A stretch of 44,206 bases of DNA. It comes from a virus. The notes beneath the pieces were generated by a model. That model saw only the letters and a program-made list of their open reading frames with translations, was not told the origin of the DNA and searched no databases. How positions within the stretch are numbered: position 1 is the first letter of the stretch; each line of letters starts with the position of its first letter. The position numbers and the translations under genes were made by a program. Below are positions 2,454-2,528 of the stretch, in pieces. Where the stretch lies: positions 1 through 44,206 of IMG/VR virus record IMGVR_UViG_3300009826_000008. One strand, 5' to 3'.

Positions 2454-2528
2454 CGCAGGGTGGTCTAGGTTTAGGACGACCATCTTCTCCGATGGTAAGT
2501 GCAGGTTCAAATCCTGCCCCTGCGTCCA
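2454..2528 (+). tRNA. tRNA-like gene with encoded CCA and a non-canonical anticodon arm (UCU/Arg-like at best)
   Basis: Canonical parts:
- A perfect 7-bp acceptor, cgcaggg/ccctgcg.
- U8, and a D arm gtct-aggttta-ggac with GG in the loop.
- A T arm gcagg-TTCAAAT-cctgc.
- Discriminator T followed by CCA.

The anticodon arm accatc-ttctcc-gatggt folds as either 6 bp with a 6-nt loop or 5 bp with an 8-nt loop (cttctccg). Confidence 0.55.

Follow-up and report, generated by a model that had tools for sequence, protein, structure and literature searches.

What does a phage gain from a transfer RNA (tRNA) gene whose anticodon arm cannot form a normal loop? The question is raised by IMG/VR virus record IMGVR_UViG_3300009826_000008, a stretch of 44,206 nucleotides (nt) that was analysed at its full length and is called the window here. 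A tRNA-like gene of 75 nt lies in it at positions 2454-2528 on the + strand. The original prediction saw in its anticodon loop the hallmark of a +1 frameshift-suppressor tRNA, and suggested a decoy for tRNA-targeting defences or a processing handle as secondary possibilities. The frameshift lead proved to be unsupported. What lies there is an orphan tRNA-derived gene, the only one in the window, and it belongs to the early operon (+ strand) of a podovirus-like phage. The preferred reading, to which a probability of about 0.4 is given, is that it yields a co-transcribed, tRNA-derived RNA which is still shaped and processed like a tRNA but is no longer a normal decoder. In other words, the RNA would be a processing or structural module or a recent relic.

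A cloverleaf with intact stems

ARAGORN called 2454-2528 (+) as the sole tRNA gene of the window. The Rfam tRNA model RF00005 matched 2454-2525 with a score of 51.5 bits, well over its gathering score of 29 (E is 2.7e-8 when the whole window is searched), and was the only Rfam family above threshold in the window. The locus and strand proposed originally were thus borne out by both methods. The minimum-energy fold of the 75 nt is a cloverleaf as well (-30.3 kcal/mol, z -3.4), and 0 of 200 shuffles folded as well. With its parts separated by hyphens, the gene reads CGCAGGG-TG-GTCT-AGGTTTA-GGAC-G-ACCAT-CTTCTCCG-ATGGT-AAGT-GCAGG-TTCAAAT-CCTGC-CCCTGCG-T-CCA, and it is laid out as follows.

2454-2528, + strand: the whole tRNA-like gene, 75 nt including the encoded CCA (ARAGORN, Rfam RF00005, minimum-energy fold)
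2454-2460, + strand: 5' strand of the acceptor stem, CGCAGGG, with 7 of 7 Watson-Crick pairs to 2518-2524 (CCCTGCG), among them C1:G72, G2:C71 and C3:G70
2463-2477, + strand: D arm, with the stem GTCT/GGAC (U11:A24, and U13-G22 as its one G-U pair) and the 7-nt loop AGGTTTA (2467-2473)
2479-2496, + strand: anticodon arm, 18 nt, ACCAT-CTTCTCCG-ATGGT (sequence, fold, ARAGORN)
2497-2500, + strand: variable region AAGT, 4 nt, without position 47 (sequence, fold)
2501-2517, + strand: canonical T arm, GCAGG-TTCAAAT-CCTGC (sequence)
2525-2528, + strand: discriminator U73 (T2525) and the encoded CCA at 2526-2528 (sequence)

The stems, the T loop and the CCA end are flawless. All 21 stem pairs are intact, one of them being a G-U pair, and the T loop is canonical. 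U8 (T2461) and G9 follow the acceptor strand, and the conserved tertiary bases U8, A14 (A2467), G53:C61, T54-T55-C56 and A58 are all present. The 7-of-7 acceptor stem, U8, the T loop TTCAAAT, the discriminator and the encoded CCA were all described in the original prediction and can be read in the sequence. Could the locus be a phage attachment site (attP) or a fragment of a host tRNA? The complete cloverleaf speaks against this, and no integrase was found among the open reading frames (ORFs) scanned.

The decoding end

The anticodon arm is where the gene departs from a working tRNA. As had been predicted, its 18 nt cannot form a stem of 5 base pairs (bp) with a 7-nt loop. The arm can fold with 5 bp and an 8-nt loop (CUUCUCCG, 2484-2491) or, when C2484:G2491 is added, with 6 bp and the hexaloop TTCTCC (2485-2490; UUCUCC in the RNA). 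A 7-nt loop with U33 and a purine at position 37 is found in neither form. The pairing of C2484 with G2491 is predicted with a probability of 0.997, and the form with 6 bp and 6 nt (-30.3 kcal/mol) is favored over that with 5 bp and 8 nt (-26.6 kcal/mol) by 3.7 kcal/mol in a nearest-neighbour model that ignores modifications and the ribosome. ARAGORN also draws the 6-bp form (CCATC/GATGG with the loop TTCTCC). Its label, "tRNA-?(Arg|Glu)(ct)", answers a check suggested with the original prediction: a tRNA is called and its isotype is left undecided.

The candidate anticodons are UCU (Arg), CUC (Glu) and UCC (Gly). A pyrimidine stands where purine 37 is expected after every possible anticodon, in agreement with what had been noticed originally. 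The eight single-base deletions of the loop give six distinct 7-nt loops with the anticodons CUC, UUC, UCC or UCU, and all six have C at position 37. Because no single deletion restores purine 37, the loop is not a canonical loop with one inserted base.

How far does this set the gene apart? A reference set was assembled from 112 distinct tRNAs, namely those found by ARAGORN across every locus that the analysis drew on. The set is biased to Gly and Gln tRNAs, as many of its members were found through a D-arm pattern; this pattern leaves the four middle loop bases free. A 7-nt anticodon loop occurs in 111 of these 112 tRNAs, the sole exception being the gene at 2454-2528, and a purine follows the anticodon in 110. 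A second anomaly lies in the D loop. In AGGTTTA, GG takes up loop positions 2-3 and TT positions 4-5, whereas GG is at positions 4-5 in 70 of 70 other 7-nt D loops. The pair that should be G18-G19 is therefore displaced by two bases from its usual register. The original statement that every arm except the anticodon arm is canonical holds for the presence of A14 and GG in the D loop and fails for the register of GG. The decoding end, and probably also the elbow contact, thus differs from working tRNAs in several independent ways. Among the marks of a tRNA pseudogene, lost decoding features are present; broken stems and a failing score are absent, for the stems are unbroken and the score lies 22 bits above threshold.

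Identity elements and codon usage

Which amino acid might such a gene serve? In a genome scan, the D stem (U11:A24, U13-G22), the 7-nt D loop and the 4-nt variable region emerged as the frame of Glu/Gln/Gly-type tRNAs. Haloarchaeal tRNA-Gly(UCC), Dehalococcoidia tRNA-Gln(CUG) and an actinobacterial tRNA-Glu(CUC) have the same D-arm frame. The T arm and the 3' strand of the acceptor contain 21 nt that are identical to 3' fragments of initiator-type tRNAs in JGI metagenomes. These fragments carry A73; the gene has U73 and C:G at 1:72. The best global identity to any tRNA of the reference set is ~70% (at most 54 of 75 positions), a value that does not discriminate between isotypes.

In bacteria, U73 is usual for tRNAs of Gly and Cys. 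A Glu identity is indicated by the D arm and by the absence of position 47, and Arg(UCU) by C-U-U-C-U, the 5' half of the loop. No bacterial identity set is satisfied in full: for Arg, A20 is missing and U73 is unusual, and for Glu, the acceptor pairs and position 37 are wrong. The identity elements of the gene form a mosaic. In the codon usage of the phage, AGA is the top Arg codon (354 of 827 Arg codons, 43%) and GAG accounts for 459 codons.

Is the gene a +1 frameshift suppressor?

Among the classic suppressors, sufD (tRNA-Gly), sufA6/SufB2 (tRNA-Pro) and sufJ (tRNA-Thr) carry one extra base in the loop. The last of them, sufJ, is cited in PMC3113583. An 8-nt loop can be drawn in the suf tRNAs and in the gene at 2454-2528 alike. 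However, the suf tRNAs have a canonical loop plus one base, keep a purine (often m1G) at position 37 and suppress frameshift mutations that are known. In the present gene, a canonical loop is not regained by any single deletion, the six deletion loops all having C37; no target site was found, and the cognate quadruplets abound in frame. Directed evolution of quadruplet-decoding tRNAs led to a prominent preference for A37 (PMC9094753), which is at odds with the pyrimidine found here. Furthermore, according to a review, the natural tRNAs whose loops are of odd size, some of which come from a phage, are not known to cause frameshifting (PMC5009743). Nor does a loop of 8 nt prove frameshift suppression: triplets are read by yeast mitochondrial tRNA-Thr1 with its 8-nt loop UUUUAGGU (PMC3113583).

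As a quadruplet decoder with an 8-nt loop, the gene would shift at GAG-N or AGA-N, and the loop can have 8 nt if C2484:G2491 is open, although it is predicted to close to 6 nt. One possible site can be pointed out. The ORF at 1710-2054 ends in GAG UAC UAA, and the next ORF (2056-2289) lies in the +1 frame, is open from 2047 and has no clear Shine-Dalgarno motif, so that a +1 shift at GAG 2046-2048 would fuse both ORFs. However, stop-start coupling (TAATATG) accounts for the second ORF without a frameshift. A check of the phage ORFs for +1 frameshift sites, which had been proposed along with the frameshift idea, found no split gene that needs a +1 shift. Twelve ORF junctions in the +1 frame were listed, eleven of them on the coding strand, and these proved to be ordinary short overlaps with downstream start codons and Shine-Dalgarno motifs. 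Read in triplets, the genes for terminase, portal, capsid, adaptor, a scaffold-like protein and DnaB have their full length when compared with their families and relatives, and no adjacent ORF pair maps to a single family or to one gene in the relatives.

What would an efficient quadruplet reader do to the phage itself? In-frame quadruplets are abundant (GAGA 109, AGAA 115, AGAG 135 and GGAG 89) and occur in the capsid, portal, terminase and helicase genes among others. GAGA alone is in frame 4 times in the capsid gene, 4 times in the portal gene and 25 times in the gene for a 2237-amino-acid protein. An efficient quadruplet reader would therefore harm the phage's own proteins, an argument that was also made for yeast mitochondrial tRNA-Thr1 (PMC3113583). 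The in-frame ratios of observed to expected counts (GAGA 0.79, AGAA 1.07, GGAG 0.82, GAGG 0.75) are in line with neighbouring contexts. As the value for GAGA is close to that for GAGG, there is no specific avoidance. An 8-nt loop alone is not evidence for frameshift suppression. With no purine 37 restored, a loop predicted to be closed, no target found and common quadruplets, the frameshift-suppressor reading is very improbable.

Relatives and conservation

Homologues of the gene were sought in several collections. No copy was present in 50,697 phage records searched with megablast and blastn, which gave generic T-arm matches only. Scans of IMG/VR with the T arm plus acceptor, with the neighbouring 464-amino-acid protein and with the D arm plus T loop returned no relatives. 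An IMG/VR scan with the exact 8-nt loop plus the T loop gave four chance matches, none of which folds as a tRNA. A 21-mer scan of JGI data gave 10 matches, mostly 3' fragments of initiator-type tRNAs with A73, and no homologue.

The phage itself has relatives: ~35 proteins are 42-53% identical to its terminase. Synteny was compared in a sample of fifteen loci (ten distinct phage genomes) whose terminases are relatives at 45-50% amino-acid identity. The fifteen loci have late genes in common with the window and no early genes, and the tRNA-like gene occurs in none of them. Close homologues of the neighbouring 464- and 494-amino-acid proteins were not found either. The tRNA-like element is not conserved in the phage family.

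In four of the relative loci, which represent two distinct phages, the late operon is headed by a single tRNA-Trp(CCA) gene. In one phage (L024:561-634 and L025:427-500, loci that are 99.98% identical), this tRNA scores 60 bits, its acceptor stem contains two U-U mismatches, and consensus sigma-70 promoters flank the gene. In the other (L003:8023-8093 and L004:6324-6394), the D loop is 3 nt long, the anticodon stem has 8 bp, and the score is below the Rfam threshold. Single tRNAs of odd structure seem to be a recurrent feature of this phage group.

Partial matches were seen in X21, a termite-gut run. One contig of 359 nt contains an exact copy of the 28 nt at 2501-2528 (T arm, acceptor, U73 and CCA), directly followed by a second partial copy (2507-2532, 2 mismatches), and another contig of 102 nt is 86% identical to 2485-2520. 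The community of this run probably holds a related tRNA or a mobile-element junction.

A tRNA-derived RNA, probably within the early transcript

The tRNA-like gene lies in a gap of 273 nt (2290-2562) between two early ORFs on its own strand. The following elements flank it in this gap and beyond.

2343-2362, + strand: upstream hairpin 1, 8 bp (GCTACGGG/CCCGTAGC) with the tetraloop TAAG (sequence, fold)
2381-2418, + strand: upstream hairpin 2, whose stem of 11 bp (CAGTGGTGGTA/TACCACCACTG) is perfect and whose loop has 16 nt (GTTTTCCTCCTTTGAT), ending 35 nt 5' of the tRNA-like gene; weak Rfam similarity only
2563-2787, + strand: next early ORF, 74 amino acids, no known family, starting 34 nt after the CCA

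How would an RNA arise from this arrangement? The gene is probably transcribed as part of the early transcript, because it has no convincing promoter of its own and sits between two early genes of the same strand. A scan for sigma-70-like promoters whose spacer has 16-18 nt found none upstream of the gene; the best candidate by eye is TTTACA-15 nt-TATAAC at 2419-2445. RNase P would cut at 2453/2454, and 3' trimming to the encoded CCA would release the RNA. The early mRNA would therefore be cut in two. Its upstream piece would end in the two stable hairpins, and its downstream piece would start ~34 nt before the next ORF. In the released RNA, the anticodon arm is predicted to fold as 6 bp with the hexaloop UUCUCC; if the C:G pair opened, an 8-nt loop without purine 37 would result. 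The displaced G18-G19 pair of the D loop would add to the loss of decoding. Among the secondary suggestions of the original prediction, the processing handle fits this anatomy best. The relic version of the preferred reading, in which the gene is a recently disabled tRNA of a Glu/Arg/Gly body type, is the most likely explanation jointly with the structural or processing-module version.

Several points weigh against the preferred reading. The changes appear to be confined to loops while every stem pair is kept, which looks like selection for the fold, and possibly for this very loop, rather than neutral decay. This is the chief argument that selection still acts on the RNA, and the functional readings stay in play because of it. 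The 5' side of the loop, C-U-U-C-U, is exactly as in tRNA-Arg(UCU), and the 6-nt form has U-U-C-U-C as in tRNA-Glu(CUC). As AGA (354) and GAG (459) are among the most used codons of the phage, a decoding role is plausible. Furthermore, nearest-neighbour folding ignores base modifications and ribosome-induced conformations, the processing role is putative and comes from the anatomy, and the gene is known from one single sequence.

Weighing the alternatives

In a rival explanation, the gene is a working triplet tRNA, Arg-UCU (reading AGA/AGG) or Glu-CUC (reading GAG), whose remodelled loop is insensitive to a host anticodon nuclease; such a decoder might sustain phage translation once the host tRNA is cleaved. 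On its 5' side, the loop has the canonical form for UCU or CUC, U33 included; the phage uses AGA and GAG among its top codons, and the perfect stems and T loop suggest selection. There are parallels for its parts: phage tRNAs have been proposed to carry anticodon-loop changes that block enzymes of the VapC, PrrC and colicin D/E5 types (PMC10264068), and yeast mitochondrial tRNA-Thr1 is an example of triplet reading by an 8-nt loop (PMC3113583). The single, odd tRNA-Trp(CCA) genes of the relatives are also consistent with it, because Trp has one codon and codon supply is therefore not the reason for carrying them. However, a decoder should retain a normal geometry, and this gene has no 7-nt loop and no purine 37 in any register, a Watson-Crick pair closes its loop, and its G18-G19 is displaced. 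Nor do its identity elements fit any synthetase fully, judged against the E. coli element sets. On balance this explanation is unlikely. Still less likely is a version in which the odd loop itself is the selected feature, either for low-level +1 shifting at GAG/AGA or as part of a nuclease-immune decoder. In the shifting version, a slip at GAG-U 2046-2049 fusing ORF 1710-2054 to 2056-2289 would be an example.

If the decoding end does not decode, could the RNA serve as a decoy or sponge, that is, an uncharged tRNA look-alike that occupies a host tRNA-directed defence enzyme or another tRNA-binding factor? Its top half and CCA are intact and its decoding end is probably non-functional. It sits among early genes, the usual place of counter-defence genes, and tRNA-targeting defences are widespread. 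However, the RNA would have to be expressed very highly to act as a stoichiometric sponge, and the scan showed no strong promoter, the altered loop would escape recognition by an anticodon nuclease, and no defence-related neighbour was recognised. We know of no precedent for an RNA decoy of this kind, and the idea has a slim chance of being right. An assembly or sequencing artefact, behind which a real gene with a normal 7-nt loop would be hidden, has to be considered because the read depth is only ~7.5x and the sequence support consists of assembled contigs. It is hardly credible: over 2300-2700, the ENA MEGAHIT contig is identical at every base to the contigs that Logan has for two runs, the loop is not a homopolymer, no single-base deletion yields a canonical loop, and the D-loop anomaly is independent of the one in the anticodon loop. 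The remaining probability goes to something not considered here. The preferred reading, a tRNA-shaped RNA that has lost normal decoding, is the one carried forward below.

Comparison with known systems

The gene resembles phage tRNAs that are labelled 'Undet' by tRNAscan-SE or 'tRNA-OTHER' in GenBank, which likewise are single genes in tailed phages with a good cloverleaf score. As in these, no isotype can be assigned because the anticodon loop does not have 7 nt. Phage tRNAs of non-standard loop size are known to exist, and the phage cited for them 'has many relatives' (PMC5009743). The gene at 2454-2528 differs from them in having also a pyrimidine at 37, a closable C:G pair, a displaced GG in the D loop and in that no relatives were found for it.

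Yeast mitochondrial tRNA-Thr1 (loop UUUUAGGU) is, like the gene described here, a natural tRNA with an 8-nt loop, and it reads CUN triplets (PMC3113583). If CUC is taken as the anticodon, three bases (C-U-U) lie 5' of it here, as U-U-U does in tRNA-Thr1. However, tRNA-Thr1 has G37, lacks a Watson-Crick closing pair, is conserved in ten yeast species and is served by a dedicated synthetase. In nuclease-insensitive phage tRNAs (van den Berg et al. 2023, PMC10264068), the differences are likewise in the anticodon loop beside the anticodon; T5 tRNAs that reportedly act against PARIS and retron effectors belong to the same group. These tRNAs keep a 7-nt loop and a normal decoding geometry, whereas both the loop size and position 37 are abnormal here. 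The single tRNA genes of the phage family itself, such as Trp-CCA in the relatives, are hard to explain by codon supply.

Processing signals with a tRNA-like shape include tRNAs in mRNA operons (the E. coli tufB operon), mitochondrial tRNA punctuation and mascRNA. In these cases, a tRNA fold lies in a polycistronic unit and its excision by RNase P or RNase Z sets the ends of the flanking mRNAs. The gene probably shares the polycistronic placement with these systems; its processing is suggested by anatomy.

What would follow from each reading? A quadruplet reader would be a rare natural case of altered codon reading that is carried by a virus. With an Arg or Glu tRNA that is nuclease-proof, the phage-tRNA counter-defence idea would extend to altered loop size. 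If the loop is a selected feature in either version, tRNAs would have a new natural solution at their decoding end. As the evidence stands, the locus is one more phage tRNA gene of undetermined isotype, and it carries a caution, namely that frameshift suppression should not be read from an 8-nt loop alone. A better lead than this one gene may lie in the wider pattern: each tRNA-bearing member of this group of termite and environmental podophages has exactly one such gene, and it is structurally odd.

The upstream hairpins and neighbouring genes

The two upstream hairpins could form a small RNA, an attenuator or a 3' stabiliser. Neither has a real U tract behind it, and the loop of hairpin 2, GUUUUCCUCCUUUGAU, contains an anti-Shine-Dalgarno-like CCUCC. 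Apart from the tRNA match, Rfam gave only sub-threshold noise for other RNA families in the intergenic region. An anti-Shine-Dalgarno role was also considered for CUUCUCC in the anticodon loop of the tRNA-like gene and was rejected, because its partner GGAGAAG has 5 occurrences against 5.0 expected.

Directly upstream of the tRNA-like gene, the ORF at 2056-2289 (+) encodes 77 amino acids that are almost all Gly-Tyr, Gly-Asp and Gly-Asn dipeptides. The underlying repeat at 2097-2284 is a hexanucleotide array, (GGCTAT/GGCGAT/GGCAAT)n, which gives spurious microRNA matches in Rfam. This Gly-Tyr array is probably behind the ~7% k-mer matches in unrelated sequencing runs.

Two larger early proteins are encoded downstream.

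3574-4968, + strand: 464-amino-acid protein, no close homologue, ~80 remote relatives
4971-6455, + strand: 494-amino-acid early protein whose central part is a peptidase domain of the M28 type (PHROG peptidase families; PF04389 is carried by its remote matches)

The relatives of the 464-amino-acid protein have the motif SIHPxDYLTMS...W.SC and a Cys-rich C-terminal tail in common. No Pfam family matched the motif-bearing core, and matches to zinc fingers were sub-threshold or sporadic and confined to the Cys-rich tail. Its AlphaFold model (pLDDT 71.7) had no match in PDB, and its sequence had none there either; it appears to represent an uncharacterised family. A tRNA-related function of this protein was considered and is backed by no sequence, family or structure match. 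Nothing in the neighbouring proteins hinted at a role linked to tRNA, and none of them was recognised as defence-related. In the 494-amino-acid protein, Cys-rich segments flank the peptidase domain.

The phage genome

As an assembly, the window is either circular or terminally redundant. An exact repeat of 123 bp stands at its two ends (1-123 and 44084-44206), and the genome has 44,083 bp. It matches the ENA MEGAHIT contig k141_3732133 (assembly ERZ27257300). In the Logan index, the sequence occurs in only two DNA runs (X1 and X2), both labelled as termite-gut metagenomes, and in no RNA runs; the phage is known from termite-gut metagenomes only. Its gene content is that of a tailed phage of the SU10/P22-portal (podovirus-like) kind, in two blocks and with one very long ORF.

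~0.1-17.8 kb, + strand: early and replication genes (DnaB-type helicase, exonuclease, metallophosphatase, thioredoxin)
~18-43 kb, - strand: late genes (large terminase, portal, major head protein, collagen-like fibre protein, endolysin, 2237-amino-acid ORF)
17977-24690, - strand: the 2237-amino-acid ORF, a single ORF of the late module

No integrase or recombinase was found among the phage ORFs scanned. The phage uses the standard genetic code with all three stop codons, and the ORFs are long and tightly packed. The proteins of the early genes (93-17756, +) are unusually rich in Cys: TGC and TGT together make up ~3.1% of early codons versus 0.4% of late ones. Many early proteins contain CxxC motifs that resemble zinc ribbons. 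Finally, the early ORFs at 3065-3541 and 8974-9291 are partial paralogues of each other, with DNA segments that are 75-96% identical.

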